Assembly: GCA_963744145.1 (NCBI GenBank)
Contig: CAVUSO010000001.1
Coordinates: forward strand, 3,872,001 to 3,936,000
Origin: an uncultured cyanobacterium
GTDB taxonomy: Bacteria > Cyanobacteriota > Cyanobacteriia > Cyanobacteriales > CAWUOF01
Direction of reading: 5' to 3'
DNA length: 64,000 nt
Part shown: positions 1 to 60,134 of the stretch, piece by piece
Layout: the number at the start of each line of letters is the position of its first letter
Numbering within the stretch: position 1 is the first letter of the stretch
Notes under the pieces: model-generated
The model's input: the letters and a program-made list of their open reading frames with translations, nothing else
The model's database searches: none
What the model was told of the DNA's origin: nothing
Program-made: the position numbers and the translations under genes

Positions 1-284
1 AACACCCTAATCCCTAACCGTTCGGCAGTTTCAAGATCAACATTATCTGTCCCTGTCTGCGCCAATCCTATAACTCGCAATCTTCCGCTCCTTCCCCTCT
101 CCAACACGGTTGCATTGTTTAAATGATCTATCCCCGATCGCAAAACCACAGCATCACATTGAGGAATTTCTTCTAAAAGTTCTTCCAAGGACAAACCAAT
201 CCTTATCTCTACTACGGCAAACTTTTCTAACTCGGTAATCCCCTCTGGGTGGATTTCGCTGATGACCAAAACTTTTTTCTGCAT
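1..284 (-). CDS. D-isomer-specific 2-hydroxyacid dehydrogenase (SerA/PGDH-like), runs off the left edge
   Basis: Not in ORF track. Manual translation from ATG at 284: MQKKVLVISEIHPEGITELEKFAVVEIRIGLSLEELLEEIPQCDAVVLRSG...RLRVIGLAQTGTDNVDLETAERLGIRV, the typical PGDH substrate-binding N-terminus. Confidence 0.85.
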   Translation of the reverse strand, partial: MQKKVLVISEIHPEGITELEKFAVVEIRIGLSLEELLEEIPQCDAVVLRSGIDHLNNATVLERGRSGRLRVIGLAQTGTDNVDLETAERLGIRV

Positions 285-434
285 AACCTGATTAAAAATT
301 CTGAGAATAGGTAAAGACACTAAACACTATTAGATAAAACTCGCTTAAGAGGCTGGGACTGATTATAGCATTAATTGCTTCCAAGATGATTTTGAAACTG
401 AAGTAATGCGTTTTGAGATGTTTTGACAATGCCT

Positions 435-710
435 CTAATTTTCATGACACTGTTTTTCTTTTAATTTTGGTTTTGGTTGGATAACAGATTGGTTGCTATT
501 GGATGGGGAAAGGTCGATTTTACGTTCTGTCGGTTGAGTTAGTTTTGCCATAAATACAGCAATAGCAACGATAATAAAGATGGCAAATAATCCTAGCTGA
601 GGTTGAGAGAAATCTTTTCTAAAATCGCAGGACAAACATTGATAAACATCTTGGCTGTGTTGGACTAGGCTTTTTTTACCAAAATTGGGACATTCTGATG
701 ATTTTGACAT
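435..710 (-). CDS. small protein with degenerate Zn-ribbon (CPNF...CLSC) and one TM helix
   Basis: ORF 435..758, more likely start ATG at 710 (MSKSSECPNFG...). Hydrophobic segment LGLFAIFIIVAIAVFM. Confidence 0.6.
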   Translation of the reverse strand: MSKSSECPNFGKKSLVQHSQDVYQCLSCDFRKDFSQPQLGLFAIFIIVAIAVFMAKLTQPTERKIDLSPSNSNQSVIQPKPKLKEKQCHEN

Positions 711-1062
711 AAGTTGATATTTTCCTAATTTGCTGTTGAGGTTTTTTGTACTAAACACTAATTACTTTTTTTGAGGCGGTAGATAATTAGGGTTTTAAGA
801 AGGTTTTGACTGCCATTAGGTACAAGAACTCGAAAAAAAATATCCAAAAACTTGGTATTTTTTAATTAACTTCTGCCTACCATTTACTACCTACCACCTT
901 CCTTCTATGAAAAGGGATTTTTCGTTTGATTTTTCTGTGAGCGATTAATCCTAGTTTTTTAAGTTAAAAACCAGAAAAGTAGATAGATACAGAATTTCAA
1001 ACTCTTACCCTGTGAGAGTTTGTGTTTGCGCGTGAGTTGAATTCATACCTTGACTCAAACTC

Positions 1063-1266
1063 CTAATCCCGTTCAAAAGACAAGGGTTCATGGTGTGTTC
1101 GATTGTAGTCTGCTAAACAGTGATAGATTTCGATAAACATAGACTGAAAATCATTAAGCTCGTCATCTTCCATACGGTTCCCCTGGAGTTCAAGTTTTTG
1201 TCTAATGATTTGAGCCTCTAAGATAATAGAATAAACGATGTAGGCTGCTTTTGTTTTGCTTAACAT
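1063..1266 (-). CDS. hypothetical small protein (67 aa)
   Basis: ATG preceded by AAGGGAG SD-like sequence; divergent from the ankyrin gene. Confidence 0.55.
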   Translation of the reverse strand: MLSKTKAAYIVYSIILEAQIIRQKLELQGNRMEDDELNDFQSMFIEIYHCLADYNRTHHEPLSFERD

Positions 1267-1360
1267 TGAAATCTCCCTTTAAGTTAAGAATTTAAAACTG
1301 AACCACATTTGATAAGAAAATGATAACGCATTAGATTTGGTTTGAATTGCTCATTTTTTA

Positions 1361-1390
1361 TTCAGTTTACTGAAAATTCAGTTTACTGAA
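1361..1390. promoter_or_regulatory. tandem imperfect palindromes TTCAGT-N2-ACTGAA (x2), putative operator
   Basis: ttcagtttactgaa-aa-ttcagtttactgaa in a divergent promoter region, upstream of extended -10 TGCTATAAT (1443-1451). Confidence 0.5.
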
Positions 1391-1486
1391 TTTTTTTAAC
1401 GAATATTTAGAAAACTGAAAATGATCTTCTTGAGTAATGCGATGCTATAATAAGGAACGTAAATGCTTGTATGGAAGGAAATTATT

Positions 1487-2899
1487 ATGTCTTGGGTCGA
1501 AAAATTTAATGAGTCGCATATTAAAGCCTTTTATATAACCTTGAAAGGTATGCCCAAAATAGTATTGAATGAGTGGAGCCAAGCAAGAAATATGGATGAC
1601 TTGAGGGAACGGGTATCAGAAAAGGTAAAGAAAAATATGAAAGAGGAAACTATCAACCAGCACAAGACAACAATTAAAGAAAAACTCAATGATTACATTA
1701 AAAAATATTTGCTGACCGAAGAAGAAAGGTCAGAAGTAGAACAAGTAAAAAGTGAAGTTAGAAAAAACAGAAGAAGAACAAATTTAATCCTGAACACACC
1801 AACAGAGCTACTTGGGTTTATTGGTAAGTATCAATCAGTGTTTAATGCTCTTAGAGAAGGAGATCCTGGTTGTCTAACTCCATCTATCACATACGAACTA
1901 CATATAATCATTAAATCTACGTTGACAATTGTAGAGAAAATTAGTTTTCTAAGCAGACTAATTGAGACAAATCCAGAGATTATTAATCAAACCGATGAGG
2001 ACGGATGCACGCCACTCTTTACTGCTGTGGCAATGAATCAACCAGAAATTGTCGATTTTTTAGTAGGACAAGAAAATATTAAAATAGATATATCTAATTA
2101 TTACGGATGGACACCATTTCATAAAGCGGCGAATATCGGTTCTCTAGAAATAGCTCAAATATTGGTAGAATCTGGAACGATGATAGATAGACTTACTCGA
2201 ATGAATGCAAATGCTGTTTATGAAGCGGCTTACGGTTGTGATGACATAAATGTAGTTAAATATCTTGTAGAAAAACAGGGATTAGATATCAATATATCTA
2301 CCATAGATCAATTTACACCTCTGACTACAGCTATCTGGCGACAAAATTATCAAATTGCTAAATATTTAATTGAATCAGATAGACTAACAAGCATTAATGT
2401 CAGAGATATTAGAGATGAGAATGCTCTTTATAAAGCTATTTCACAAGGATGTTTTGATTTGGCTCAAATTCTTCACGAAAAAGGTGCAGAGTTCCATCGT
2501 CCTAGACTTTTATCATCCCGATCTATCACTAATGTAAATCCTCAAAAAACTTCATTTTTTGAAGCTGTGGAAAGAGATGATTTTAGGACAGCCAAGCAAC
2601 TTATTGAAGGAGAAACTGATCAAAACAAAAAAGAGCAAATGGTTAATCAAGTGAAACACCCTTATCAGCGAACATTATTATCTATTGCCGCCCAAAATGG
2701 CAATCAAGACTTGGTTAAACTTTTAGTTGAAAACGGAGCAAATGTATTCGCTAGAAATAATCATGGCAGAACACCTAAAGAGATGGTATTAATCCCAAAT
2801 AATGAAGAAGTTTACAGGTATTTAGACGAACAAGAACAGATCGTGAACCCCAATCCCAGTGAAGATGAACTTCGCCATCGCTATGGTGAGGCAACATAA
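1487..2899 (+). CDS. ankyrin-repeat protein with non-ankyrin N-terminal domain (possible HTH)
   Basis: Several ANK motifs (GCTPLFTAV, GWTPFHKAA, FTPLTTAI, RTLLSIAAQNG, GRTP). GGAAGGA SD before ATG 1487; alternative start 1463. Confidence 0.85.
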   Translation: MSWVEKFNESHIKAFYITLKGMPKIVLNEWSQARNMDDLRERVSEKVKKNMKEETINQHKTTIKEKLNDYIKKYLLTEEERSEVEQVKSEVRKNRRRTNLILNTPTELLGFIGKYQSVFNALREGDPGCLTPSITYELHIIIKSTLTIVEKISFLSRLIETNPEIINQTDEDGCTPLFTAVAMNQPEIVDFLVGQENIKIDISNYYGWTPFHKAANIGSLEIAQILVESGTMIDRLTRMNANAVYEAAYGCDDINVVKYLVEKQGLDINISTIDQFTPLTTAIWRQNYQIAKYLIESDRLTSINVRDIRDENALYKAISQGCFDLAQILHEKGAEFHRPRLLSSRSITNVNPQKTSFFEAVERDDFRTAKQLIEGETDQNKKEQMVNQVKHPYQRTLLSIAAQNGNQDLVKLLVENGANVFARNNHGRTPKEMVLIPNNEEVYRYLDEQEQIVNPNPSEDELRHRYGEAT

Positions 2900-2912
2900 T
2901 ATTTAAAGCTGA

Positions 2913-3033
2913 TAAGTACCTGAAATAAAAATAAACGGTGCTATGTGACGAAATGTTAAGCGCCGGACACTCTTGATATTGCTTTACTTTGATGGTAATG
3001 ACATAGTGCAGTTTATGTCTGTCTGACTACTTA
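2913..3033. mobile_element. MITE-like element with imperfect TIRs (TAAGTA...TACTTA)
   Basis: taagtacctgaaataaaaataaacggtgctatgt is an imperfect reverse complement of acatagtgcagtttatgtctgtctgactactta. Confidence 0.55.
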
Positions 3034-3287
3034 GCTCTCTTTTATAATTTTGGATGGAAACATTGATTTTTTTCAGGGCTGCAACAAATAACAAAAGAGA
3101 GTTTTATCTTTTTTATAAAACTGAAAAATTTTACTGCATATTTTTCAATTTTATAAACTTTTATTATTTTCAACAATTTTCGAGATAACTTTCAGCGAAA
3201 TGGATTTTTCCAAAAGCAAAAAATATGCTATAAAGGTATTGGGAAATATTTTTTGTACGCAATCAGTCATAATTTATTGGACTAAAT

Positions 3288-5126
3288 ATGAACAATTATA
3301 TGGTAAAGATTAACCGTAAGTCGGAGAGTTACAAAAAGGAAATTATTGTTTCAGGTGCACAAATAATTTTGAATATTTTGGGGCAAAAAGGTATTAAGCA
3401 TATTTTTGGCGTTCCGGGTAGAGAGTCAGAAGGAATTTTATTTAACGAATATCAAGATATCAACCTAGTTTTAACAGCTGTCGAAAATACTGCTGGATTT
3501 GCGGCTTATGCTTACACTCAAGTTACAGGGAAAACTCAGGTAGTATTTACTACTATTGGACCTGGTGTAGCAAATATGGCTAATGTCATCTACTCAACTT
3601 GTAGCGATCGTATTCCTGTGATCTTTATTTGTGTACAGGTAGAAACAGATAGAATTTTCCATAACCATACACATCAGTGTATAGACGCTGTAGCAATGTA
3701 TCGTCCTATTACTAAGTATGCTCATGAAATCGCAAATGTTGAGGAGATAAAAAATTGTTTGGAAACTGCTTTTGAGAAAACGCAAGAAGAACCTAAAGGA
3801 CCTGCACTCATTAGTGTTCCTATTGATATGCTCAAAGCTAAAATAGACCTTTTAAAAGCGCAGAAAAAAGTAGTATTAATAAGACCAATTCAAGGCAATA
3901 ATCGCCCGTCATCTATGCCAAATATGGATATAAAAAAAATTCAAAATGTAAAAGGTATTCCAGAATACATCCAAAGCTCTAATTACACTGCTCAAAAATT
4001 AATTGATATCAACAAAGCAGCCAAACTAATATCTAGTTGTCAACAACCTTTGTTATATGTAGCCAATGAAATAATTCGCTCAAATTCTGTCGATGAAGTA
4101 CAAGAGCTTTGTAATGAGTATAATATTCCGGCAATATTTGCATACGATACTAAGGGAGTTTTACCGAGTAATCACGAACTTAATTACTTTACTTGTAGTA
4201 GCTACGCTGAAGGAATATTAGGACTTAATCCTAATAGATATATTTTTCCAAAAGAAGTAGATTGTATAGTATCACTTGGTTATGATTACAAAGATGATGT
4301 ATTTCCCGAAAAGCATTTTAGATATGGAGAAGGGGGAAACCATAGATTACTAATTAATTTATCTGGTTTTATGCCCGATAAAATTGTTACAGAATTTGAC
4401 TTTCATATCAATGGAAATATAAACACTAACTTAAGGGAGCTTTTGAAATGTTTAAAGCAAAAACCAGCTAAGTTTAATCCTCCTTATAATATTAGCCCAT
4501 TGAGAGAGGCTATGAGCCAGAAGATAAAATCTACTAATTTAGAGACACCACCAGGAAAAATCAATATTGTTGAGGTAATCAAAAGCATTAATAAGCATTC
4601 AGCCGTTTTGGTTTCTGATGTTGGTACTTTCAGACATTACGCTGTGTTATTCAGCGAGATTTTAAAACCAAATTACTTCCTAACATCTGCTGGTAGTTCA
4701 TCTTTTGGTACAGGATTACCTTTCGGATTCGGGGCGGCTCTTGCTCATAAAAATGAGAAGATTATTGTCTTGGCTGGGGATGGTGGATTTAATTCTAGCA
4801 TAGGAGATTTAAGAACACTGAAAAAGTATAATACGGATATAGTGATTATTGTTCTGAATAACAATAAGAATGGTTTAATCAATATCTACCAGCAAAAGGG
4901 GCACAATGGTAAAATTAATAAAGATGCAGTAGATCACTCTAATGCCGATTTTGTAGCAATTGCAAAAGGATATGGATGTGAAGGTGCAAGAGTTTGTTGT
5001 TCCTATGAACTCGATTGTGCTATTAAAGATGCTTTTGATAAGGGTGGACCTTGGGTGATTGAAGTCCCTATTTATTACCCTGAAGAAGATATTAAAAGAT
5101 TAACCTGTAGCCAGAATTTAGGTTGA
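3288..5126 (+). CDS. ThDP-dependent enzyme, N2-(2-carboxyethyl)arginine synthase (CEAS)-like
   Basis: ThDP motif GDGGF-X-NN and catalytic Glu (LTAVE). Motifs FGVPGRES-ILF, IFHNHTHQCID, YAEGIL, GYDYKDD, SDVGTFRHYAVLF, FLTSAGSSSFG and NGLINIYQ parallel the recalled S. clavuligerus CeaS sequence. Confidence 0.8.
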   Translation: MNNYMVKINRKSESYKKEIIVSGAQIILNILGQKGIKHIFGVPGRESEGILFNEYQDINLVLTAVENTAGFAAYAYTQVTGKTQVVFTTIGPGVANMANVIYSTCSDRIPVIFICVQVETDRIFHNHTHQCIDAVAMYRPITKYAHEIANVEEIKNCLETAFEKTQEEPKGPALISVPIDMLKAKIDLLKAQKKVVLIRPIQGNNRPSSMPNMDIKKIQNVKGIPEYIQSSNYTAQKLIDINKAAKLISSCQQPLLYVANEIIRSNSVDEVQELCNEYNIPAIFAYDTKGVLPSNHELNYFTCSSYAEGILGLNPNRYIFPKEVDCIVSLGYDYKDDVFPEKHFRYGEGGNHRLLINLSGFMPDKIVTEFDFHINGNINTNLRELLKCLKQKPAKFNPPYNISPLREAMSQKIKSTNLETPPGKINIVEVIKSINKHSAVLVSDVGTFRHYAVLFSEILKPNYFLTSAGSSSFGTGLPFGFGAALAHKNEKIIVLAGDGGFNSSIGDLRTLKKYNTDIVIIVLNNNKNGLINIYQQKGHNGKINKDAVDHSNADFVAIAKGYGCEGARVCCSYELDCAIKDAFDKGGPWVIEVPIYYPEEDIKRLTCSQNLG

Positions 5127-5197
5127 TAGGTTAATCTAATATGAGATTGATCCGGATCTCGATACTGTTGGCGAAATATTTCTTAACACTAGGACTA

Positions 5198-5412
5198 ATA
5201 CCAATTCTCTAAATGCCGACTACAGATAGGGCCTCTAATATATAGGCTCGTCCCGTCTTTTCCTGAACCAGTTTTTTCCACTACGAGCAATTTCTTCAGC
5301 TCGGCATCACTTTCCTTGATGTCTAGGTGATAAACTCCTGCCATATTTTTCCTTCAACTCTACTCAAATTATACTCTACACTATCTGTAGTCGGAATTAC
5401 AAGAATTGGGAT
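5198..5412 (-). mobile_element. internally deleted IS630-family element (MITE)
   Basis: TIRs ataccaattct...ccgactacagatag / ctatctgtagtcgg...agaattgggat. Interior encodes MAGVYHLDIKESDAELKKLLVVEKTGSGKD, the N-terminus typical of cyanobacterial IS630 transposases. Confidence 0.7.
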
Positions 5413-5514
5413 AACAGCTCAACTCAGATTAAGTGCAATTTCATAGGCTATTGGGATGAACTGGATTGAGTTAGAATAAAATATCTAATATTAAATCAAA
5501 CTTAAATAAAATCT

Positions 5515-6450
5515 ATGCCAATCCAACCACCGTCTTCCACTATTTCCCCAACTGAACTACCACTACAACCACTACTACCAACCATGTATGATCTCCCTAG
5601 TGAGGACCCGGAGGAACCTGGTTTGCCCGATGAATTTCATTCGTTACAACCCCCATTACTGAGTCATACAATTCGTTTACAGGATTATCCCAAAGAGCGA
5701 ATTTTTACCGGCTCTGATTTAAACATCTATTACGATGTCAATCACACTCTTTGGCACAAACGTCCCGACTGGTTTCTGGTAATTGATGTACCCAGACTCT
5801 ATGAAGGTAGAGATTTACGTGATAGTTATGTAATCTGGCAAGAAAAAGTCAATCCGGTAGTGGTGATTGAATTACTATCTCCTGGAACGGAAAAAGAAGA
5901 CCTAGGAGAAAGAGCAGAAAGGGAGGAAGAAGAGGGTGAAAATGGTCAAGAAATACGGAGAGAAAATCTACCCCAAAAAGCTGAAATTCCACCGACCAAG
6001 TGGGAAGTTTATGAACAGATTTTACAAATACCTTATTATCTAGTATATAGTCGTCGTCGCGATCGGCTACGTCTATTTAAGTTAGAGAAAGGTAGATATC
6101 AAGAACAAGCATTAAACCCAACACAACAAGGATTTTGGCTGACAGATTTAAAAATTGGGATCGGGATCTGGTTAGGGGAATATGAAGGAATAAATCGACC
6201 CTGGTTACGCTGGTATGATGAAACTGGGAATTGGTTACCGACAGCAACAGAATTAGCCCATCAAGCTGAAATTCGGATTGAACAAATTAGCATCGAAGTG
6301 AACCAAGCTAAAATTGAAATTGAACGAGCTCACTCTGAGGTTAAACAAGAACGACAAAAACGGCAAGAATTATTACAAAAATTAAGTACCCTATCTCCTG
6401 AACAGCTCATTGCTTTAGGAATTAATCTAGGAGATTTTCACGACCAATAA
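5515..6450 (+). CDS. Uma2 family (DUF820) PD-(D/E)XK endonuclease
   Basis: LPTMYDLPSEDPEEPGLPDEFH, RPDWF, VVIELLSPGT, WLRWYD motifs. Confidence 0.9.
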   Translation: MPIQPPSSTISPTELPLQPLLPTMYDLPSEDPEEPGLPDEFHSLQPPLLSHTIRLQDYPKERIFTGSDLNIYYDVNHTLWHKRPDWFLVIDVPRLYEGRDLRDSYVIWQEKVNPVVVIELLSPGTEKEDLGERAEREEEEGENGQEIRRENLPQKAEIPPTKWEVYEQILQIPYYLVYSRRRDRLRLFKLEKGRYQEQALNPTQQGFWLTDLKIGIGIWLGEYEGINRPWLRWYDETGNWLPTATELAHQAEIRIEQISIEVNQAKIEIERAHSEVKQERQKRQELLQKLSTLSPEQLIALGINLGDFHDQ

Positions 6451-6586
6451 ATTGTAAATTATTTTCACGCCGATCGTCAAACCTACTCAGCAAGAAAACA
6501 AATCTTTAGCTGAAGCTTAAAGTTGCGTCTTGTTCGGGTTGATCTATAATTTTGTAGAGACGATGCCCGCGCACTTTTCTACAAAA

Positions 6587-6934
6587 TTAAATCTGGCTCA
6601 TAACTTCAGACTTTAACTGAGATGGAGATAAATCTTTCTCATTAATAAATTCATTAAATAGTTCAAAAAATCTATCCAGTGCATCTCTTTCATCTTCGGA
6701 ATAAAATAGAATTATTCGACTCCAATGTTGAGTAGAAGATTGATTAAATTTGCTTTCAATCCACTCCTGAAACTGCTCAAATTCTTGTTCTTCTTGACTA
6801 ACAGGAATATTAACTTGACGTAAAGCAAAAGTATAACCATCTAAAAAGGTCTGAAATTGACTAAGAGCAGCTTTCCCTAAATATAAAGCTGGTCTTTGTT
6901 TAATTTTATCAATCAATTCGTAAAAGCTAATCAT
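6587..6934 (-). CDS. conserved hypothetical protein (KIKQRPALYLG type)
   Basis: 115-aa ORF with SD; resembles small accessory proteins common in cyanobacteria. Confidence 0.7.
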   Translation of the reverse strand: MISFYELIDKIKQRPALYLGKAALSQFQTFLDGYTFALRQVNIPVSQEEQEFEQFQEWIESKFNQSSTQHWSRIILFYSEDERDALDRFFELFNEFINEKDLSPSQLKSEVMSQI

Positions 6935-6950
6935 AATTTTACCTCAATTG

Positions 6951-7161
6951 TTAGAACATGGGAGTGCCTAGTTTTTCTAATTGAGAGCGAATTGTTCCAA
7001 ATGCCATTGTTGCCGAATCATTAAAGGGCAAAGATATAAATTGAGATAGAGTATAGGTTGTTATTAGCTGTAGTCAGACTTTGAGCAAGCACTTGGATAA
7101 TATGCAGCTTTTGGGTGAGTGAAAGCTGCATGAGATGTACGTCAAGCTCTTGGATTAGCAT
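6951..7161 (-). pseudogene. decayed type II TA module: antitoxin-like N-terminus fused by deletion to a VapC/PIN fragment
   Basis: 7161->7021 encodes MLIQELDVHLMQLSLTQKLHIIQVLAQSL...; another frame (about 7050->6951) encodes LSQFISLPFNDSATMAFGTIRSQLEKLGTP, a VapC-like internal segment. Confidence 0.6.
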
Positions 7162-7162
7162 A

Positions 7163-7541
7163 TTGACACTCCCACGCCCAAAGGCAGTGGGATTCTTGAA
7201 TCAACGACCGCACTTAACCAACCCCAATTGCTTAGAATTAGCCAGAGGTGCAATCTCATCAAGCGTAGAAATTCCGCCGTGCCCCGGCGTATTTTTTACT
7301 AACAACATTTTGATTAGTTGTAGATTATCAATGGGCAATCGGATCGTTAGATCCTAAAATTACGCCGTGCGACGCTTGCCGCAATTTTCAGCGTTGCCAT
7401 CGATTGATATTAATAAGCGCGTATTTTCTTAGGAAAATACGCGCTTATTAATAGAATTTAATAATTTTTACGGCTCCTAAGCCAACAGCTGTCCGATTCA
7501 TCCCGACCCCTGAAAGGGGTGGGCTTTCTCGGTAACTACTT
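7163..7541 (-). mobile_element. non-autonomous IS200/IS605-family element (PATE) retaining both ends and the tnpB 3'/omega-RNA region
   Basis: Minus strand: left flank TTAC, then LE hairpin (CCCACCCCTTTCAGGGGTCGGG). Ends AAGAATCCCACTGCCTTTGGGCGTGGGAGTGTCAA, i.e. RE hairpin plus TCAA. No intact tnpA or tnpB. Confidence 0.8.
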
Positions 7542-7567
7542 GTAAGTGCCTTACTAGCGAACGTGAC

Positions 7568-7597
7568 TGTAGGGGCGTATGGCCATACGCCCCTACA
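7568..7597. repeat. GTAG-type REP palindrome (perfect 30 bp)
   Basis: tgtaggggcgtatgg|ccatacgcccctaca, just downstream of gatC. Confidence 0.8.
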
Positions 7598-7606
7598 TGG
7601 ACATAT

Positions 7607-7897
7607 TTATTCTTCATTTAAAATTTTCGGAACTTGGAAATAATCACCGTCAGGTGCTGGTGCATTATTCAGAATCCCTGCTCGATCAGGATAAGGTTGC
7701 AGCAAATCTGGTCTAGTGATATTACTCAGATCGATCGCTCTAGTAGTGGGTTCGACATTTTCTGTATCTAATTCACTTAACTGAGTAAAATATTCCAAAA
7801 TACTACCCAGTTGGTCAGTAAATTGTTTTTCTTCTTCCGAAGTCAAATGTAACCGGGCCAGATGAGCGACTTTACGAACTTGATCAATTTCCAACAT
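7607..7897 (-). CDS. gatC: Asp-tRNA(Asn)/Glu-tRNA(Gln) amidotransferase subunit C
   Basis: VRKVAHLARL...YFQVPKIL. Confidence 0.97.
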   Translation of the reverse strand: MLEIDQVRKVAHLARLHLTSEEEKQFTDQLGSILEYFTQLSELDTENVEPTTRAIDLSNITRPDLLQPYPDRAGILNNAPAPDGDYFQVPKILNEE

Positions 7898-7965
7898 CAG
7901 AATTTTCAGTAAAGTTGATTAATTGTTGCCAAGGATGAGGGGCTGAAAATTTTGCCCCTATCTAA

Positions 7966-8487
7966 TTAGAAAAACACATCTGCCGTTGAGCGTCCAGTAG
8001 TTTTGAGCCAATTTTGAGCTTCAATGTAATTGTTGGGTGCTAACCGGATCGCTCGCATCCAGTAATCCGCAGCTTGACCATACATCGATTCTGCTTCTTC
8101 GGCTTGCCCTTCGGCTGTGAATTTATCACCTTGAAAGTGATAGATTACAGCAATATTATTGAGAGCTTGGGGCATTCGCGGATTAAGCTCGATCGCTTGG
8201 TGATAGTATTCGAGGGCTTGAGCATGGTCACCATTACTGGTATGGATTAACCCAATATTATAAAGGATATAGCTCCGATCATTAGGATCTTCCTCTAGGG
8301 TTAAAGCTTCATAATAGTTTTCTAGGGCTTCAGCATATTCACCCTCTGCTTGAGCAGACATTCCATCTCTATAGTAGACAAAAGCTTCTTTGGCTTTTTT
8401 GTTAGCAGGCAGAATTTTGAGCAGAATATCTGCCATTACGGTAAAGCTTTTGTCAATAAAGTTATCGTTACGTTGAGTTCTTGGCAT
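7966..8487 (-). CDS. ycf3: photosystem I assembly protein Ycf3
   Basis: [18 protein letters not shown] repeats, [14 protein letters not shown]. Confidence 0.98.
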
Positions 8488-8673
8488 AGGGAGACGCGAT
8501 AGTCGAACCGAGGGTTTAAACTGATCTACCTAACTTTACCGTCAATTGGTAAGTTTACCGCACTATGTTAAGTAATGTAACAATATTGCCATCAAAGAGG
8601 TTTAGCATCTTGACATCCAGAAGAAAAGACTCTATGGTAAAAGTCATACCCGGGTAAGCCAATTCAGAGTCAT

Positions 8674-9018
8674 ATGCAAGATAAGCAAAAAGTTACGTTA
8701 TATCTGCCGCCAGAACTGCATCGCCGACTCAAAATCCGAGCTGCGGTTGACTCAGAACCAATGTCTGTCATTGCCGAACGTGCGCTGAACTTCTATATGG
8801 AACATCCAGAAATAGTAGATGAAGCGAACACCGAGTACGGTAGAACCCATCGGGTTTACAATTGTCCGGAATGCGAAAGTGCAGTGGTAATGCGAGACGG
8901 AGAAATAGTTTCTCTAAGACATCAGCCTAGTGTTTTAGCCCAGACAGAGGGGCTTCCTGTAGAAAAAGTACATTCGAGTACGGATCAACAGGGAGAGGAA
9001 GCCTTAGTTCCTTGCTAA
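8674..9018 (+). CDS. ribbon-helix-helix domain protein (Slr0373-like)
   Basis: KQKVTLYLPPELHRRLKIRAA RHH motif plus CPEC; first gene of the ycf46-ycf35 operon. Confidence 0.85.
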   Translation: MQDKQKVTLYLPPELHRRLKIRAAVDSEPMSVIAERALNFYMEHPEIVDEANTEYGRTHRVYNCPECESAVVMRDGEIVSLRHQPSVLAQTEGLPVEKVHSSTDQQGEEALVPC

Positions 9019-9125
9019 AGTTTCGACCCTTGTAAAAAAGCGATCGCGCTTATGTGTTCAGCACTAAAGGCTGGGGGCATAAAGATCAGGCAAAGTTTGC
9101 ACCCGTTCTAATTAGGTTAATGGTC

Positions 9126-10634
9126 ATGAAAGAAGAGCTCAACATCTTAATTCAAGCTCAATATCCAATGATCTACCTGGTAACCTCCGAAGAAGAGCGA
9201 GCCGAGCAGGCAATTGCAATAATTGCTCAGATCAAGCCCCAGCGAAGAGTTTTTATATGGACAGTCACCCATGGGATTGTGGAGTTTGGTCAACCGCGGA
9301 ATGTGACCCAACATAACACCGTATCGCCAGAAGCAGCGATCGAGTGGGTGATCAGACAGCGCGAACCAGGAATATTTATATTTAAGGATTTACATCCCTT
9401 TATTGATTCACCAGCCACCACCAGATGGTTAAGAGATGCGATCGCCAGTTTTAAAGGGATGCAGAAAGCAATTTTGCTGATGTCCCCCTTACAACAAATT
9501 CCGATCGAATTGGAAAAAGAAGTAATCGTTCTCGATTTTCCGCTCCCCACGATGGCAGAACTAAATCAAGTGCTCAACCAGCAGTTAGAAAGCATCAAAA
9601 CCCGAAGAATAAACACAGAGACGCGGGAAAAACTGCTCAAAGCCGCATTAGGGTTAACCAGAGATGAAGCGGAAAAAGTTTATCGTAAAGCCCAATGTAG
9701 TGCTGGACGTTTAACCGAAGCCGAAGTAGATATAGTGCTATCGGAGAAAAAACAACTAATCCGGCGGAATGGGATTTTAGAATATATCGAGGAAGATGAA
9801 ACCATCGATTCAATTGGGGGATTGGAAGAGTTAAAACGCTGGCTGAAACAACGTTCCAATGCTTTTACTGAAAGAGCGCGAGAATATGGTTTACCGCAAC
9901 CGAAAGGAATGTTAATCTTAGGTGTGCCAGGCTGTGGTAAGTCCTTAATTGCCAAAACAACAGCCCGTCTCTGGGGTCTACCACTATTAAGGTTAGACAT
10001 GGGGCGCGTCTATGATGGGTCGATGGTAGGTCGCTCTGAAGCTAACTTACGCAACGCTCTGAAAACCGCCGAATCGATCTCACCAGCGATTTTATTCATC
10101 GATGAATTAGATAAAGCCTTTGCGGGAACTAGCGGTTCAGCAGACTCGGATGGTGGAACATCCAGCCGGATCTTTGGTTCATTTCTCACCTGGATGCAAG
10201 AAAAAACCTCTCCTGTATTTGTGATGGCTACAGCTAATCGGGTGGAACGGTTACCAGGAGAATTTTTACGGAAAGGTCGTTTTGATGAACTGTTTTTTGT
10301 AGATTTACCCACTAAGGAAGAACGTCAGGAAATCTTTAAGATTCACCTCTCCAAGAGAAGAAGAGAGATAGAACGTTTCGATATCGAGCAATTAGCTATA
10401 GTTTCCGAAGGTTTTTCTGGGGCAGAAATCGAGCAAGCGTTAATCGCCGCGATGTATGACGCTTTTGCCCAAGATCGGGAATTTACCCAATTAGATATTA
10501 TTGCCGCGATTAAGTCAACCCTGCCGCTGTCAAAGACAATGACAGAACAAGTAACCGCCCTGCGAGATTGGGCGCGGCAAAGGGCCAGACCCGCAGCCTC
10601 CGCGATCGCTGAATATCAGCGAATGGAGTTCTAA
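9126..10634 (+). CDS. ycf46: Ycf46 AAA-family ATPase
   Basis: Walker A GVPGCGKS, Walker B LFIDELDK, LRKGRFDE; likely start MKEELNILI at 9126. Confidence 0.92.
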   Translation: MKEELNILIQAQYPMIYLVTSEEERAEQAIAIIAQIKPQRRVFIWTVTHGIVEFGQPRNVTQHNTVSPEAAIEWVIRQREPGIFIFKDLHPFIDSPATTRWLRDAIASFKGMQKAILLMSPLQQIPIELEKEVIVLDFPLPTMAELNQVLNQQLESIKTRRINTETREKLLKAALGLTRDEAEKVYRKAQCSAGRLTEAEVDIVLSEKKQLIRRNGILEYIEEDETIDSIGGLEELKRWLKQRSNAFTERAREYGLPQPKGMLILGVPGCGKSLIAKTTARLWGLPLLRLDMGRVYDGSMVGRSEANLRNALKTAESISPAILFIDELDKAFAGTSGSADSDGGTSSRIFGSFLTWMQEKTSPVFVMATANRVERLPGEFLRKGRFDELFFVDLPTKEERQEIFKIHLSKRRREIERFDIEQLAIVSEGFSGAEIEQALIAAMYDAFAQDREFTQLDIIAAIKSTLPLSKTMTEQVTALRDWARQRARPAASAIAEYQRMEF

Positions 10635-10786
10635 AAGCTTTCTCCTGCTCCCAACAGGAGGAAAGGCTAGCAAGTCAAAATTGCTAGCAGAATGAAAAAA
10701 GCCGCTCTCTTCCCTTAAATCAAGCGGCTTGCTGAAAAAACCAAAACGTTGTTGTTTCTCTCTATTTTCTACAGGAGTAAATCCCC

Positions 10787-11140
10787 ATGTCTCACTTTAG
10801 CACTTTACGCACCAAAATCACCGACGCCGAAATCCTCAAAGCTTCTCTCCGCGACCTGGGTATCAACGTGAAAACAGAAGCAGATGTTCGTGGCTACAAT
10901 GGTCAGCGTGTTCGTTCCGATATCGTTGCGATCTTAGATGGCGAATATGATTTAGGCTGGTCTCGCAATAGCGATGGTTCCTTCGATCTAATTGCTGACC
11001 TCTGGGGTGTTGCCAAAAAACACAATCAAACTGAACTAATTAATTCCATCAATCAAAAATACGCAGTCAACAAGACTTTGGCAGAAGTCCGTCGTCCTGG
11101 TTTACAAAATGCCAACGTCAAATTGGTTCTCCAAAATTAA
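10787..11140 (+). CDS. ycf35: DUF1257/Ycf35 family protein
   Basis: MSHFSTLRTKI...FDLIADLW...INQKYA. Confidence 0.92.
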   Translation: MSHFSTLRTKITDAEILKASLRDLGINVKTEADVRGYNGQRVRSDIVAILDGEYDLGWSRNSDGSFDLIADLWGVAKKHNQTELINSINQKYAVNKTLAEVRRPGLQNANVKLVLQN

Positions 11141-11164
11141 TCTTTCTGCGCGTTCCCAAGCTCG

Positions 11165-11197
11165 CGGGTTAACCAAATACGGGTTAACCCGTTTTTT
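11165..11197 (+). terminator. rho-independent terminator of the ycf46 operon
   Basis: cgggttaacc/ggttaacccg stem followed by tttttt. Confidence 0.8.
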
Positions 11198-11253
11198 ATT
11201 GAGATTTTGGAGCAGAACTCCATTTATGATTGATTGTGTATTAATTAATTATT

Positions 11254-12111
11254 ATGAAGAATTTTACACCGACACAAGAGCAAAAAATTCGCGCCTTGCT
11301 CAGAGATTGTGGCCAACAAGCCGAGCAGTTTGCTAGTCAAAAATTTCAGATTTACACCAAGGGTCCTGATGATTTTGTGACTAGTGTAGATCGCTTGTTA
11401 GATCGTCAACTCACTGCGGGATTTGCAGATTTGTTTCCTGAAGATGGGACAATTACGGAAGAAAATGAATCATCGCGTTTGGCTTTCCATGCTGGTTATG
11501 ACCGATTATGGTGTATTGATCCGCTAGATGGCACAGATGATTTTATTCAGGGTAAACCTGATTATTCCGTGATGGTTGGTTTACTTTGTGGGCGTCAACC
11601 AGTAGCAGGTTGGCTCTATGCTCCTGTCCAAAATCAGCTTTATTATGGTGGTCGTGACTGGGGATTGTTCCAAACTCAAGCCGATGAACCATCAACAGTT
11701 TTAGTACCAGTACAACCAATTTCACCTTCTCGGTCTTTTTGTCCGGTGATGTTGGGATATAAAGATCAACAAAATTTTGGCTCAGCGATCGCTGAGGTGA
11801 TTCCTGGAGCCCAGTTTTATAGTATTGGGAGCTTTGGATTAAAAGTAATTGAAGTGATTATGGGTCGGGTTGGTCTGTATCTATATCTCAATGGTCGGGT
11901 AAAACTGTGGGATACGGTGGGACCATTAGCCCTAGCCCTAGCGGCTGGTTTAACTTGTTGTGATTTAGATGGTAAACCACTTAGTTTTGAAAATGATGCG
12001 ATTAATCCTGTAACTTTAGCTCATGAGCAATCAATTGTGATTGGGTGGCCAGAATATGTGGCTGAGTTACGCCCAAAAATTCAACCAGCGATCGCCAACA
12101 TGAGATCATAG
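11254..12111 (+). CDS. inositol monophosphatase / CysQ family protein
   Basis: DFVTSVD, TEE, WCIDPLDGT, WD motifs. Confidence 0.9.
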   Translation: MKNFTPTQEQKIRALLRDCGQQAEQFASQKFQIYTKGPDDFVTSVDRLLDRQLTAGFADLFPEDGTITEENESSRLAFHAGYDRLWCIDPLDGTDDFIQGKPDYSVMVGLLCGRQPVAGWLYAPVQNQLYYGGRDWGLFQTQADEPSTVLVPVQPISPSRSFCPVMLGYKDQQNFGSAIAEVIPGAQFYSIGSFGLKVIEVIMGRVGLYLYLNGRVKLWDTVGPLALALAAGLTCCDLDGKPLSFENDAINPVTLAHEQSIVIGWPEYVAELRPKIQPAIANMRS

Positions 12112-12197
12112 AAACAGCCCGACAGAAAAATACCAGAGATTGGTTAAGCGGCTGTCGGTAAACTGGTGTTGGTAAACACAATGATTAGAGATTTTTT

Positions 12198-13787
12198 ATG
12201 AATGCTACTGCGCTCTGGGAACGCTATCAAGATTGGCTGTACTATCACCAAGGGCTAGGATTTTATGTAGATATTAGTCGGATGCGTTTTGACGATAATT
12301 ATTTTTCGGCTCTGTCAGTAAAATTTGCCCAGGCTTTTCGGAATATGTCAGCTTTGGAAGCAGGTGCGATCGCTAATCCAGATGAAAATCGGATGGTTGG
12401 TCATTATTGGTTACGCAACCCTGATTTAGCTCCCAATTCCGAATATAAACAAGAGATTGTGGAAACTCTCCATCAAATTGAAGATTTTGCCCAGAAAGTT
12501 CATCAGGGAGTAATTCGTCCACCTCATGCAACCAAGTTTACTGATATCCTGTCAATTGGGATTGGTGGTTCAGCTTTAGGACCAGAATTTGTCGCTGAAG
12601 CGATCGCCCCGGAAAATCCACCTTTAGCGATTCATTTTTTGGATAATACTGATCCGGCTGGGATTGACCGAGTTTTACATCAGATTCAAGATCGATTGTC
12701 TAGCACCATTGTATTAGTAATTTCTAAATCAGGAGGGACTCCAGAAACTCGCAATGGCATGATTGAAGTGCAAACTGCTTATCGCGATCGCCACTTAGAT
12801 TTTGCCAAACACGCAGTAGCAATTACAGGGATTAACAGCAATTTAGATCAACTAGCTAAATCTAATGGGTGGATTGCTACTTTTCCGATGCACGACTGGG
12901 TTGGGGGTAGAACATCCGAACTTTCTGCGGTGGGATTATTACCAGCTGCATTGCAAGGAATTGATATTCGGGCCATGTTAGCAGGTGCGAAGGAAATGGA
13001 TGATGTGACTCGCTTACAGCAAATTAAAGGTAATCCAGCCGCTCTGTTAGCTTTAGCTTGGTATTCAGGATGTAACGGACGTGGCGACAAGGATATGGTA
13101 ATTTTACCTTACAAAGATAGTTTACTCCTTTTTAGTCGCTATCTCCAACAATTAGTAATGGAATCCCTGGGCAAAGAAAAAGATTTAGATGGCAAGATCG
13201 TACATCAAGGTATTGCTGTTTATGGGAATAAAGGTTCAACGGATCAACACGCTTATGTCCAACAATTGCGTGAGGGTGTTCCCAATTTCTTTATGACTTT
13301 TATTGAAGTTTTAGAAGATCGTCAAGGTCCTTCAACCGAAGTAGAACCAGGGATTACCTCCGGAGATTATCTATCGGGATTATTACAAGGTACAAGAGCA
13401 GCACTTTATGAAAATCAACGGGATTCCATCACAGTTACTATTCCCCAAGTTAATCCACGGACAATAGGTGCTTTAATTGCTCTTTATGAACGAGCAGTTG
13501 GTTTATACGGTTTTCTAGTTAATATTAATGCTTATCATCAACCTGGGGTAGAAGCAGGTAAAAAAGCAGCAGCAGCAGTTTTAGAATGGCAAAAACGCAT
13601 TCTTCAAGTTCTGCAACAAGCAGGAAAACCTCTGACTATAAAGGAATTGGCTGAACAAGCAGGAGCTCCTGAACAAATTGAGGTTATTTACAAAATCTTG
13701 CGACATTTATCTGCTAATAAACGCAGTGTGATTTTAACGGGTGATTTAGGACAACCTGCTAGTTTAATTGTTAACCTATTGCGATAG
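12198..13787 (+). CDS. pgi: glucose-6-phosphate isomerase
   Basis: [46 protein letters not shown]. Confidence 0.97.
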
Positions 13788-14005
13788 GTAAATGATTGAT
13801 CATGGGTAATTAATATTACCCATTGATCAAAAAATTGGTAATGGGTGCCGATGGTGGGAGCATTGCATCTGAAGCCATTGGATGATTGAGGATTAGGGGA
13901 CTCGCATTCCCTACTACAAACTTATTAAACATCAAGCTGATCAATCTCAAATTGCTATACTTAAATTAAGCATCTCGTCATTCCTGTTGTGGATCGCTAA
14001 GAACT

Positions 14006-14824
14006 ATGGTCCAAAGTCTTGACCCTACTATATTACCCCCTCCTTTTCCCGATCATACCCAATTACCTGAATCCGACGGCACCTTCGTGAAAAACTTTCA
14101 AGAACATCCCCAATGTATCTTGCTGACTGACTCTTTGGAAACTACACTGCAAAATCTTCATCCAGATGGTCAATATGCGATCGGACAAGATAGTGGGATT
14201 TATTGGAGAGAAACAGATCCTCCGGAACGGGGAGCGGAAGCACCGGATTGGTTCTATGTTCCTAACGTTCCACCCCTATTAGACGGTCAAGTTCGTCGTT
14301 CTTATGTATTATGGCGCGAATATAGTGTGCCCTTAATTGCGATCGAATTAGCGAGTGGAAATGGTGCAGAAGAACGAGACAATACTCCCCTATCTCGTTC
14401 TTCTGAAAGGAGCAATCAGAAACCCGGTAAGTTTTGGGTATATGAGCAGATTATTCGGATTCCTTACTATGCCATATATATCATCAAAACCAGGGAATTA
14501 GAAGTTTATAACTGGGTGAATATTCACTATCACCGTTTGCAACCAAATGAGCGCGGACATTACCCGATTGATCGGATGGGAGTAGAATTAGGTGTGTGGG
14601 AAGGTAGCTATCAAAATCAGACTAATCACTGGTTACGTTGGTGGGATAGTCAAGGTAATCTGTTGCTCACTGGTAGTGAACAGGCTAAACTGGAACGTCT
14701 TCATACTGAACAGGAACGTCAACGGGCTGATGCTGAAACAGTACGGGCTGATCGAGAACAGCAACAGAAAGAACGATTAGCTGCTTATTTGCGATCGCAA
14801 GGAATCGATCCGGATTTAATTTGA
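14006..14824 (+). CDS. Uma2 family (DUF820) endonuclease
   Basis: PDHTQLPESDGTFVKNFQEHPQ, APDWFYVP, WLRWWD. Confidence 0.9.
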   Translation: MVQSLDPTILPPPFPDHTQLPESDGTFVKNFQEHPQCILLTDSLETTLQNLHPDGQYAIGQDSGIYWRETDPPERGAEAPDWFYVPNVPPLLDGQVRRSYVLWREYSVPLIAIELASGNGAEERDNTPLSRSSERSNQKPGKFWVYEQIIRIPYYAIYIIKTRELEVYNWVNIHYHRLQPNERGHYPIDRMGVELGVWEGSYQNQTNHWLRWWDSQGNLLLTGSEQAKLERLHTEQERQRADAETVRADREQQQKERLAAYLRSQGIDPDLI

Positions 14825-14862
14825 GCTAACGCGACCTACAATAATATTTGTTTCTTTGGTGG

Positions 14863-14900
14863 TAATGTTCATGGGTAATATTAATTACCCATGAACATTA
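14863..14900. repeat. 17-bp-arm palindrome between convergent genes (REP-like, possible bidirectional terminator)
   Basis: taatgttcatgggtaat-atta-attacccatgaacatta; related ATGGGTAA/TTACCCAT palindromes near 13800 and 46645. Confidence 0.6.
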
Positions 14901-14940
14901 AATAGATATTAGCCACTCTATTTACCAGCTCTACCTGTTG

Positions 14941-22041: not shown

Positions 22042-22734
22042 TTAAATTGCCAACTCTGATAATCGCTGGACAAATTCTTGATGTTTTCTTGTCTTCAATC
22101 CCTGTTGCAATCCAGCTATCACTTCAGCTAATTTCCCCTCTAATAAAGCTGATACCGCTAACCATAAACCAGGGAAAATTTCACTACAAATCACTCCATC
22201 TGCATTCGGTTCTACCAGTATATATTCGCCTTGGTTTAATCTAAACCAGTCAAATTTTTGGTTATAAACTCGCCATACCAAATATTCTTGTACCCGGTGG
22301 CGACGGTAAACTTTTAACTTATCATGTAAATCATAAGAGGCACTACTAGCTGCTATTTCAACAATTAATTCTGGCGCACCTTCTACATAGTCATCATCGC
22401 TAATTCTAGACTGTCCACCTACATCTATTCGCAGCATTGCATCTGGTTGTGGTTCGTTATCTTCATCCAGACGAACGGTGGTATTATCTAGTAAATCAAC
22501 TCCAGGGGTTTCGATCCAGTAAGCTCCTAACCAAGCCATAATCGCAGCATGAGGTTGACCATGACGTTTAGCTCTTACTGCTGATGCCATATATACCACT
22601 CCTTCAATTAATTCTGCTTTTTTAAGCTGGGACATAGCTTCATAACGTCGTTCAAATTCATGGCACGTTAATCTGTCCCCACTTTCTAAGGGTAGTATTT
22701 CCAAGACTGGCTGGTTAAGTGTTTTGGTTGACAT
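22042..22734 (-). CDS. Uma2 family (DUF820) endonuclease
   Basis: LESGDRL, AELIEGVVYM, EPQPD, GAPELIVEIAASS. Confidence 0.92.
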   Translation of the reverse strand: MSTKTLNQPVLEILPLESGDRLTCHEFERRYEAMSQLKKAELIEGVVYMASAVRAKRHGQPHAAIMAWLGAYWIETPGVDLLDNTTVRLDEDNEPQPDAMLRIDVGGQSRISDDDYVEGAPELIVEIAASSASYDLHDKLKVYRRHRVQEYLVWRVYNQKFDWFRLNQGEYILVEPNADGVICSEIFPGLWLAVSALLEGKLAEVIAGLQQGLKTRKHQEFVQRLSELAI

Positions 22735-53949: not shown

Positions 53950-54030
53950 TACCCTATTTTTCGCTTTTAGATTAATTCTACTTATTTATTAACCAAGTTT
54001 AACTCATCTTCCCATCATCATACCTTGATT

Positions 54031-54045
54031 ATGCACAAACTGCAT
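54031..54045. promoter_or_regulatory. NtcB (LysR) box ATGC-N7-GCAT
   Basis: atgc-acaaact-gcat upstream of the NtcA box of nirA. Confidence 0.8.
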
Positions 54046-54082
54046 CTTTTCTATGCGTTAATATCATTGCTTGAAATTTTTG

Positions 54083-54124
54083 GTAACAACCGATACGAAC
54101 TAATTCGATTTATCTTCTTAAAGT
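54083..54124 (+). promoter_or_regulatory. NtcA-activated class II promoter of nirA
   Basis: GTA-ACAACCGA-TAC (54083-54096), 22-nt spacer, -10 TAAAGT (54119-54124). Confidence 0.88.
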
Positions 54125-54168
54125 ATGTGCATCAGAGTCAAGGTTTAATACATACAGTGGACAAACTG

Positions 54169-57676: not shown

Positions 57677-57734
57677 AAATCCACCAGGGGTATAGCAATA
57701 TACCCCCACTATCATCATTTATTAACGACTAAAT

Positions 57735-60041: not shown

Positions 60042-60134
60042 TTGATGTTAAACTGTGATCCGTACATGGTAATCATTCCCTTACCTTAGCCAGAGGTGAA
60101 GGAATAAATTACTTACTGAACATCAGTCAAATTT

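Follow-up and report, generated by a model that had tools for sequence, protein, structure and literature searches.

A carboxyethylarginine synthase-like enzyme in a cyanobacterium, encoded beside an ankyrin-repeat protein and apart from clavam genes

Background

What would a cyanobacterium do with the entry enzyme of clavam biosynthesis when none of the usual partner genes is found nearby? The question is raised by a 64-kb stretch of DNA (the window; positions 3,872,001 to 3,936,000 of contig CAVUSO010000001.1, assembly GCA_963744145.1) from an uncultured cyanobacterium, in which an initial annotation, made from the letters alone, singled out a gene for an enzyme that depends on thiamine diphosphate (ThDP) and resembles N2-(2-carboxyethyl)arginine synthase (CEAS). 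The CEAS reaction is among the most unusual of those that use ThDP, in that a beta-elimination of phosphate is followed by the formation of a C-N bond. To our knowledge, the only setting in which CEAS has so far been encountered in practice is the first step towards clavulanic acid and the clavams. Our best explanation for the cyanobacterial protein (P0001) is that it is a functional CEAS-type ThDP/Mg2+ enzyme, which probably converts triose phosphate to acryloyl-ThDP and adds this to an amine, outside clavam biosynthesis and as one half of a gene pair whose other member encodes an ankyrin-repeat protein.

Results

Family assignment

The 612-aa ThDP enzyme described in the initial annotation was recovered in full, and its seven motifs (GVPGRESEGILF, IFHNHTHQCIDA, SYAEGIL, GYDYKDD, SDVGTFRHYAVLF, FLTSAGSSSFG and NNNKNGLINIYQQKGH) all occur verbatim in the translation. 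The motifs of Streptomyces clavuligerus CeaS that had been given for comparison (GVVGREAASILF, IFPNDTHQCLDS, YMDGIL, GYDYAED, SDIGFFRHYGVLF, FLTSAGCSSFG and NNDTNGLIELYQNIGH) are likewise all present in the CEAS sequence of the PDB.

When the PDB sequences were searched with phmmer, CEAS was the top match (1upa_A, 322.1 bits, E 5.3e-95; 1upa and five more entries), and the next distinct sequence was an acetolactate synthase (ALS) at 166.5 bits, with ALS, PoxB, BbmA and CsmA all at about 166 bits or below. Among plasmid sequences, CeaS1 of S. clavuligerus pSCL4, which is encoded in a ceaS1-bls1-pah1-oat1 context, gave 335 bits at 33% identity, compared with 197 bits for the best ALS. P0001 and CeaS1 are 33.9% identical overall (185/545) and 65% identical (71/109) across ten loop segments, the latter value being biased upward because the segments were picked around the motifs of the initial annotation.

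The predicted fold agrees with this assignment. An AlphaFold2 model of P0001, built from a 28-sequence alignment, had a mean pLDDT of 88.6 and a pTM of 0.88, with low confidence limited to residues 1-13 and 195-232. In a Foldseek search of the PDB, the ten top-ranked chains listed were all CEAS (best 2ihu_B, E 1.7e-58, TM 0.91), and the ALS match was weaker (E 3.1e-43, TM 0.87). A careful maximum-likelihood tree was then computed for 35 rows, picked from the 56 rows of a quick tree plus CeaS1, with eight ALS/PoxB rows as the outgroup. The CEAS superclade, comprising 27 rows and including both S. clavuligerus CeaS1 (L081) and P0001, was separated from ALS/PoxB with a support of 100/100, and the 56-row quick tree agrees with this split. 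P0001 therefore groups with CEAS and not with ALS or the decarboxylases. The comparisons by score, by phylogeny with IlvB/PoxB-type enzymes and by modelled structure thus all bear out the proposal that the protein is CEAS-like, and we place it in the CEAS superclade with high confidence.

Automated annotation had been expected to give the protein an ALS-like name, which proved partly right. At NCBI the relatives are called 'thiamine pyrophosphate-binding protein', and the RefSeq name of pSCL4 CeaS1 is also only 'thiamine pyrophosphate-binding protein', while JGI labels the Nostoc homologue 'N2-(2-carboxyethyl)arginine synthase'.

Active-site residues

To compare active sites, the PDB numbering of CEAS was transferred through the phmmer alignment, and P0001 was tabulated with 11 other cyanobacterial, 15 actinobacterial and 13 outgroup sequences. 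The actinobacterial set consisted of 14 of the 77 loci with a linked bls gene (see below), spanning genera, plus P0016; the truncated P0011 and L002, which is identical to P0013, were left out. A 2026 study describes R36, E57, T80, H120 and Q121 as a network that stabilises the enolate-ThDP intermediate, and it reports that E57 and H120 mutants are inactive and that condensation with arginine is abolished in a CEAS carrying D301S (PMC13500476). All five network residues are aligned with, and identical to, residues R45, E66, T89, H129 and Q130 of P0001.

In total, P0001 has the actinobacterial state, shared by 14-15 of the 15 actinobacterial sequences, at 20 CEAS sites: R36, E37, E57, T80, H120, Q121, C122, Y271, Y296, D297, Y298, D301, F413, R414, H415, Y416, S436, S437, F438 and Y561 (in P0001, R45, E46, E66, T89, H129, Q130, C131, Y306, Y332, D333, Y334, D337, F448, R449, H450, Y451, S471, S472, F473 and Y597). 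The network residues and C131 lie in the N-terminal pyrimidine-binding (Pyr) domain. Y306 and D337 lie in the central domain, which has the loops LNYF...SYAEGIL and GYDYKDD, and the C-terminal diphosphate-binding (PP) domain carries F448-R449-H450-Y451, the S471-S472-F473 loop and a GDGGF...NN metal/ThDP motif. The equivalent of D301 is Asp in 10 of the 11 other cyanobacterial and in 15/15 actinobacterial sequences. The counterparts of Glu, His, Tyr, Asp and Arg-His in the CEAS active site are thus aligned and conserved, as had been noted from the sequence. P0001 holds 22/22 signature residues, and among 84 full-length representatives at least 20 of the 22 are found only in P0001, P0012, P0015 and P0211.

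Other positions have been replaced. CEAS G266, H467 and E474 correspond to F301, N502 and R509 of P0001, and at these three sites the bls-linked Bdellovibrionales enzyme, P0015 and the Patescibacteria-type enzymes all side with the actinobacteria. At CEAS R303 (F339 in P0001), Arg is confined to actinobacteria and Bdellovibrionales, and Phe is found across the cyanobacterial clade. The triose-phosphate half of the site looks unchanged, and the presumed amine half has been remodelled. The inter-domain linker carries an insertion peculiar to P0001: it is a gap in 27/27 other rows of alignment A1, and residues 195-232 have a pLDDT below 50 in the model.

The cyanobacterial clade

A word-indexed search identified 11 proteins with 47-54% identity to P0001 (P0004-P0014). 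The named members among these are all cyanobacterial, namely Nostoc sp. DSM 114167 and three marine 'Cyanobacteria bacterium' metagenome-assembled genomes (MAGs). P0015 was next at 41%, and every other match had 36% identity or less. When 1.84 billion 50%-cluster representatives were searched exhaustively, the clade consisted of one full-length sequence (P0012, 603 bits) and one fragment, beyond which came P0015 at 423 bits and then a match at 343 bits. It can therefore be deduced that the clade is small. Another representative from this search, of 1043 aa (P0230), in which the CEAS-like part begins at about residue 506, is possibly a fusion protein of the wider family.

In the careful tree the cyanobacterial clade is monophyletic at 100/100, P0001 is sister to the other eight members (98/86), and P0015 is the sister of the clade as a whole (98/96). 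The branching order of five subclades (cyanobacterial, actinobacterial, Bdellovibrionales, Paraburkholderia-type and Patescibacteria-type) is left unsettled by this tree.

Clavam partner genes

Normally, a CEAS gene can be expected to come with the other genes of the clavam pathway. Genome contigs were scanned with one peptide pattern, and the best 80 of 353 confirmed relatives were kept as loci, none of them from the source genome of the window. These comprised two cyanobacterial loci (L001, Nostoc sp. NMS9, 54%; L002, a marine MAG, 49%), 76 mostly actinobacterial loci, one from Paraburkholderia (L045) and one from Bdellovibrionales (L060). With Salinispora cluster genes, identified by Pfam, as tblastn queries, a relative of bls was found in 77/80 loci, of pah in 75/80, of cas in 74/80 and of oat in 59/80. 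The bls gene adjoins the CEAS homologue in all 77, the exceptions being L001, L002 and L045. Two other loci without pah and cas (L017 and L028) both end within ~1.6 kb downstream of the CEAS gene.

In contrast, no relative of bls, pah, cas or oat was found in the 64-kb window (tblastn, best E 0.21), in agreement, for the first three, with the initial annotation, or within 10 kb in either cyanobacterial locus. With bls in 77 of the 80 loci, coupling to clavam genes is thus the normal state in this family, and the cyanobacterial branch departs from it as a group. Since L001 and L002 are also without bls, pah and cas while bls is adjacent in 77/80, the missing partners seem to be characteristic of the cyanobacterial clade as a whole. 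There is also no multi-gene natural-product cluster at the P0001 locus, where an ankyrin-repeat protein is the only recurring partner. A TauD-family oxygenase gene, weakly similar to clavaminate synthase (E 6.4e-4), lies between the enzyme and ankyrin genes of L001. It was considered as a core partner and rejected, having only five relatives, being restricted to a Nostoc subgroup, and being absent from the window and L002. In L002, a gene for PanD (aspartate 1-decarboxylase; 9455-9916, +) lies on the same strand 91 bp upstream of the CEAS-like gene; it is probably a housekeeping gene, and beta-alanine is a conceivable amine substrate.

Some of the remaining loci merit a separate mention. In the Bdellovibrionales MAG (L060, 4449-13539), the gene after the CEAS homologue is of the Asn_synthase (bls-like) type, and an arginase-family gene and ArgJ are close by; a set of early-clavam-type genes therefore exists outside Actinomycetota. 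The record titled Jannaschia sp. R86511 (L015, 9770-16353) has a ceaS-bls-ATP-grasp-pah/cas cluster that nearly equals the one in an actinobacterial Phycicoccus locus (L003); the CEAS branches of the two are 0.06-0.08 long, which suggests a mislabelled record or a recent transfer. An ATP-grasp (L-amino-acid-ligase-like) query had tblastn matches in 20/80 loci, mostly between bls and pah (for example, L003 12201-14432 and L015 13125-14405), and loci with such a match look like variant clavam-type clusters. In both L003 and L015, pah and a TauD/CAS domain are in one long open reading frame (ORF), as obtained by greedy ORF calling.

The ankyrin-repeat neighbour

The gene upstream of the CEAS-like gene encodes an ankyrin-repeat protein (P0002). 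In Nostoc sp. NMS9, a 434-aa ankyrin protein that is 44% identical to P0002 over 330 aa (E 1e-81) is encoded two genes downstream of the enzyme. Ankyrin proteins of this type are rare: among 5.8 billion proteins P0002 had five close relatives (190-257 bits), followed by generic ankyrin matches at 136 bits or less. Two of the five are on contigs equal in size to contigs with a CEAS-like gene (P0123 and P0004, 8,475,087 bp; P0125 and P0014, 7,496 bp). Enzyme and ankyrin protein are therefore paired, by observation or by implication, in three separate lineages within the clade, with differing gene orders.

An N-terminal LuxR/GerE helix-turn-helix (HTH) domain is present in five of seven aligned members of the ankyrin family (L001, P0123, P0124, P0126 and P0127). 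It was not detected by Pfam in P0125 or, even at E up to 10, in P0002, and in alignment A2 only T63, H67 and I71 of the recognition helix are invariant. Since most of the ankyrin relatives carry the LuxR-type HTH, the protein is probably a dedicated regulator or protein partner. In L001, a perfect tandem duplication of TCTGATTAAAACTACTAC (12942-12977) between the TauD gene and the HTH-ankyrin gene could be a candidate binding site for the LuxR-type domain. A role for the pair in defence was also considered and set aside, as PADLOC returned only generic ankyrin matches (PDC-M72A, Ankyrin) and nothing for the enzyme.

Upstream repeats, composition and other genes

The coordinates of the gene pair, its repeats and the enzyme domains are collected in Table 1.

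Table 1. Positions in the window of the CEAS-like gene, its domains and the features upstream
Feature	Position	Strand	Basis or remark
Tandem copies of TTCAGTTTACTGAA	1361-1374, 1377-1390	+	upstream of the ankyrin gene
TTTAGAAAACTGAAAA	1406-1421	+	42 nt before the ankyrin gene
Ankyrin-repeat protein gene (P0002), 478 aa	1463..2899	+	Pfam ankyrin families
Inverted repeat upstream of the CEAS-like gene	3112..3157	+	18-nt arms, 94% complementary, 10-nt spacer
CEAS-like ThDP-dependent enzyme gene (P0001)	3288..5126	+	uninterrupted ORF of 612 aa from ATG to stop, and translation; top PDB match by sequence and fold; tree
N-terminal Pyr domain, residues 22-137	3351..3698	+	Pfam TPP_enzyme_N, E 4.8e-26
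Inter-domain linker, residues 195-232	3870..3983	+	~30-aa insertion, only in P0001; predicted to be disordered
Central domain, residues 241-338	4008..4301	+	Pfam TPP_enzyme_M, E 3e-11
C-terminal PP domain, residues 444-593	4617..5066	+	Pfam TPP_enzyme_C, E 6.7e-34

Each arm of the inverted repeat, 130-175 nt before the enzyme gene, is a copy of TTTA[G/T]AAAACTGAAAA. This pattern has three matches in 64 kb (the two arms and one copy 42 nt before the ankyrin gene), compared with 0.03 expected, and was chosen after the data had been seen. The tandem copies of TTCAGTTTACTGAA before the ankyrin gene are related to it. Because of this post hoc choice, an unbiased test was applied, which determined the longest stretch that the two upstream regions have in common when one mismatch at most is allowed. 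The observed length was 16, and 14 of 300 simulations attained it, which is borderline. The motif is not common to L001. The repeats are therefore a weak hint that the ankyrin and enzyme genes may share an operator or be co-regulated. No riboswitch or other RNA element was found upstream, the only two Rfam matches in positions 1-8000 being far below the gathering scores, and a scan for promoters and terminators (12 promoter-like sites compared with 27.3 expected, and no terminators) was uninformative.

The gene pair has a G+C content of 0.34, compared with a window mean of 0.39. Its G+C content at third codon positions (GC3) is 0.25, within the range of 0.21-0.43 seen in neighbouring housekeeping genes, so that composition is not informative as to whether the pair forms a foreign islet. 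The same low-G+C stretch includes a candidate ORF of 107 aa (435-758, -), CxxF...CxxC-like in its N-terminal part and with a single hydrophobic helix, for which neither Pfam nor PADLOC gave a match. Further left, the N-terminus of a D-isomer-specific 2-hydroxyacid dehydrogenase (3-320, -) runs off the window end; it is transcribed away from the pair and, with a G+C content of 0.43, is core-genome-like.

Three Uma2-family (putative restriction-endonuclease-like) genes are present in the window, at 5515-6450, directly downstream of the CEAS-like gene, at 14006-14824 and at 22042-22734, and 194 bp separate the third from a gene (22928-24076) for an AAA_21 (AbiEii-like) ATPase. Wider synteny with L001 was considered on the basis of Uma2 genes beside the pair at both loci and was rejected, since these genes are not orthologous (best E 0.21).

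The window is otherwise ordinary cyanobacterial chromosome, with petC/petA, PBS-lyase HEAT proteins, purD, argF, aroB, hemE, glyA and nirA-nrtP-narB. The nitrate assimilation genes (54025-61056, +) encode a ferredoxin-nitrite reductase, a nitrate/nitrite transporter of the major facilitator superfamily, a molybdopterin nitrate reductase, PsiE and a nitrate-reductase-associated protein. Beside a gene of the NAD-dependent epimerase/dehydratase family and hemE lies one for a B12-binding radical SAM protein with DUF4070 (29458-31041, -). A Tn5-type transposase gene with DNA-binding, DDE and dimerisation domains (43068-44420, +) lies ~38 kb from the CEAS-like gene.

Discussion

Proposed function

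The chemistry of acryloyl-ThDP formation and amine addition is one that P0001 would probably perform, judging by its conserved residues. In such a reaction, the ThDP ylide, activated by E66, would attack D-glyceraldehyde-3-phosphate (D-G3P). H129, with R45, T89 and Q130, would support enolisation and loss of phosphate to give acryloyl-ThDP, and Michael addition of an amine followed by hydrolysis would then yield an N-(2-carboxyethyl)-amine. We infer these steps from the conserved residues; what the enzyme uses and makes, and what the ankyrin protein does, are likewise inferred, whereas the family membership, the conserved catalytic residues, the missing clavam partners and the recurring ankyrin neighbour are observed.

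The retention of D337, the equivalent of D301, would allow for arginine or another basic amine as the acceptor; a changed amine is also conceivable, since pocket-loop residues that are constant elsewhere are replaced in the clade. Arginine itself is a tentative choice with the balance tipped against it, given the replacement of R303 and further pocket residues despite the retained D337. A clavam is most probably not the product, because the branch is uncoupled from beta-lactam synthetase, amidinohydrolase and clavaminate synthase, and a different product is made probable by the absence of partner genes together with the adjoining ankyrin-repeat protein. By homology, the strain may make an N-(2-carboxyethyl)-amino acid, as originally suggested.

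A more far-reaching proposal, which we regard as speculative and unlikely in its entirety, is that the clade represents a neofunctionalised CEAS. The acryloyl-ThDP half-reaction would have been kept and the nucleophile pocket re-tooled (G266F, R303F, H467N and E474R) for a non-arginine acceptor. The enzyme would be part of a two-component system with its dedicated ankyrin protein, which could either sense a ligand as a LuxR-type regulator or be a physical partner that presents the acceptor or gates it. What is made would then be an undescribed N-carboxyethylated metabolite of Nostoc-type and marine filamentous cyanobacteria, unrelated to beta-lactams.

Several observations weigh against a CEAS-type enzyme that works with an ankyrin protein outside clavam biosynthesis. 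The stem of the cyanobacterial clade is long (~1.2 substitutions/site in the careful tree), and P0001 combines the longest end branch within its clade (0.64) with the low-confidence linker insert of 38 residues. Among 164 columns that are at least 90% conserved in both sets (12 cyanobacterial and 15 actinobacterial rows), 114 are identical and 50 are switched, and several of the switches, among them G266F, R303F, H467N and E474R, fall in pocket loops. The switched columns could mean a changed nucleophile or even a changed chemistry, and the substrates and product suggested for P0001 are assigned by homology. The partner search around the gene covered 64 kb of a 7.6-Mb genome, and the view of the cyanobacterial context comes from two loci, of which L002 has no ankyrin gene near its CEAS-like gene. 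The missing HTH signal in P0002 and the borderline result of the upstream-match test belong here as well.

Alternative explanations

P0001 could instead catalyse the first step in a genuine clavam-type beta-lactam pathway, with bls, pah, cas and oat located elsewhere in the genome. This would fit the retention of all tested CEAS catalytic and arginine-linked residues, including D337, the weakly clavaminate-synthase-like oxygenase beside the Nostoc sp. NMS9 homologue and the limited stretch of genome in view. However, bls directly follows the CEAS gene in 77/80 loci, even in the Bdellovibrionales MAG, none of the four genes was found in the window or within 10 kb in L001 and L002, and the oxygenase is restricted to a Nostoc subgroup and absent from the window, so that we give such a pathway only a slender chance. 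It is also improbable that the enzyme forms free acrylate or another non-amine product from triose phosphate, through hydrolysis of acryloyl-ThDP by water. The 2026 study states that without an amine CEAS-type enzymes release acrylic acid from D-G3P and dihydroxyacetone phosphate, and that H120 alone acts directly in the chemistry (PMC13500476), and the clade changes residues beside the arginine-linked D301, most clearly in R303F. On the other hand, the conservation of D337 and of the whole FRHY and GYDY loops across the clade suggests that a second substrate is still bound. In addition, the same study describes acrylate as toxic to microbial hosts (PMC13500476), and no detoxifying or exporting gene is adjacent.

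An ordinary ALS-like carboligase or 2-keto-acid decarboxylase, such as an IlvB/AlsS paralogue or a furanolide/butenolide-type acyloin-forming enzyme, would be in keeping with the Pfam result, which gives just the generic TPP_enzyme N, M and C domains, and with the fact that the best NCBIfam matches are ALS models (NF006187, 267.5 bits with a cut-off of 509; TIGR00118, 262.1 bits with a cut-off of 538). Yet none of the ALS/PoxB cut-offs is reached, all 25 NCBIfam matches listed being far below theirs. Such enzymes also score no more than about half of the CEAS value in the PDB search, they are split off at 100/100 in the tree, and the HQC, FRHY and SSF signatures are found in 0/13 outgroup sequences; this identity is very improbable. 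Just as little weight can be given to the idea that the gene is a decaying or functionless relic of horizontal acquisition. The long end branch, the unique disordered insert, the low G+C content of the pair and the sporadic distribution could all be read in this way, but the frame of 612 codons is intact with every signature residue in place, the model is confident outside the linker, and the GC3 value is inside the local housekeeping range. We therefore favour a working CEAS-type enzyme with a use of its own.

Significance

The kind of enzyme is already known, as the JGI label of the Nostoc homologue illustrates. Full-text literature searches found no paper on a cyanobacterial CEAS; the single 'carboxyethyl' match in a cyanobacterial paper was the reagent TCEP. 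A conserved cyanobacterial branch that keeps the catalytic machinery alongside an ankyrin protein, and whose beta-lactam partners were either lost or never present, points to a second biological use of CEAS chemistry. Should the enzyme prove active, it would open the way to a new N-carboxyethyl metabolite of cyanobacteria, and it would add a natural variant with an altered pocket to the toolbox for beta-amino acid synthesis and acrylate biocatalysis.

Comparison with known systems

The closest known enzymes are CeaS2 and CeaS1 of S. clavuligerus (EC 2.5.1.66; PDB 1UPA, 1UPB, 1UPC, 2IHT, 2IHU and 2IHV), which are the best sequence match and have a like three-domain ThDP fold. CEAS residues R36, E57, T80, H120, Q121, C122, Y271, Y296, D297, Y298, D301, F413, R414, H415, Y416 and Y561 are identical in P0001, although overall identity is just 33-35%. 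P0001 differs in the derived states G266F, R303F, H467N, E474R and C435S, in its extra linker insert of ~30 aa and in its separate, long-stemmed cyanobacterial clade. It also has an ankyrin-repeat partner gene in place of adjacent bls, pah, cas and oat.

AlsS, IlvB and PoxB share with P0001 the ThDP superfamily, the domain order, the cofactor glutamate and the GDG...NN metal motif. In contrast to CEAS, they are 23-27% identical to P0001, reach about half of the CEAS bits and are on the opposite side of the 100/100 split, without the R36/E37, HQC, GYD, FRHY and SSF signatures that P0001 keeps.

Uncharacterised CEAS-like enzymes of other phyla, encoded apart from bls, belong to the same superclade as P0001 but form separate subclades whose pocket residues differ. 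In the Patescibacteria-type group (P0018-P0033), unlike P0001, D301 is replaced by H or R in 10/10 and F413 by H or N in 10/10 sequences, and the group also differs at Y416 and Y298. The other group includes the Paraburkholderia phymatum enzyme (L045), with P0017 and P0034. In that locus (5897-16442), IS4 fragments and group II intron fragments flank the CEAS-like gene. Its neighbours encode a PAD_porph deiminase-like protein, an enolase-superfamily protein and an EamA transporter, with no ankyrin protein among them. Like the cyanobacterial loci, L045 is without bls, pah and cas nearby and is another clavam-independent context, and therefore the clavam-independent use of the CEAS scaffold is not limited to cyanobacteria.

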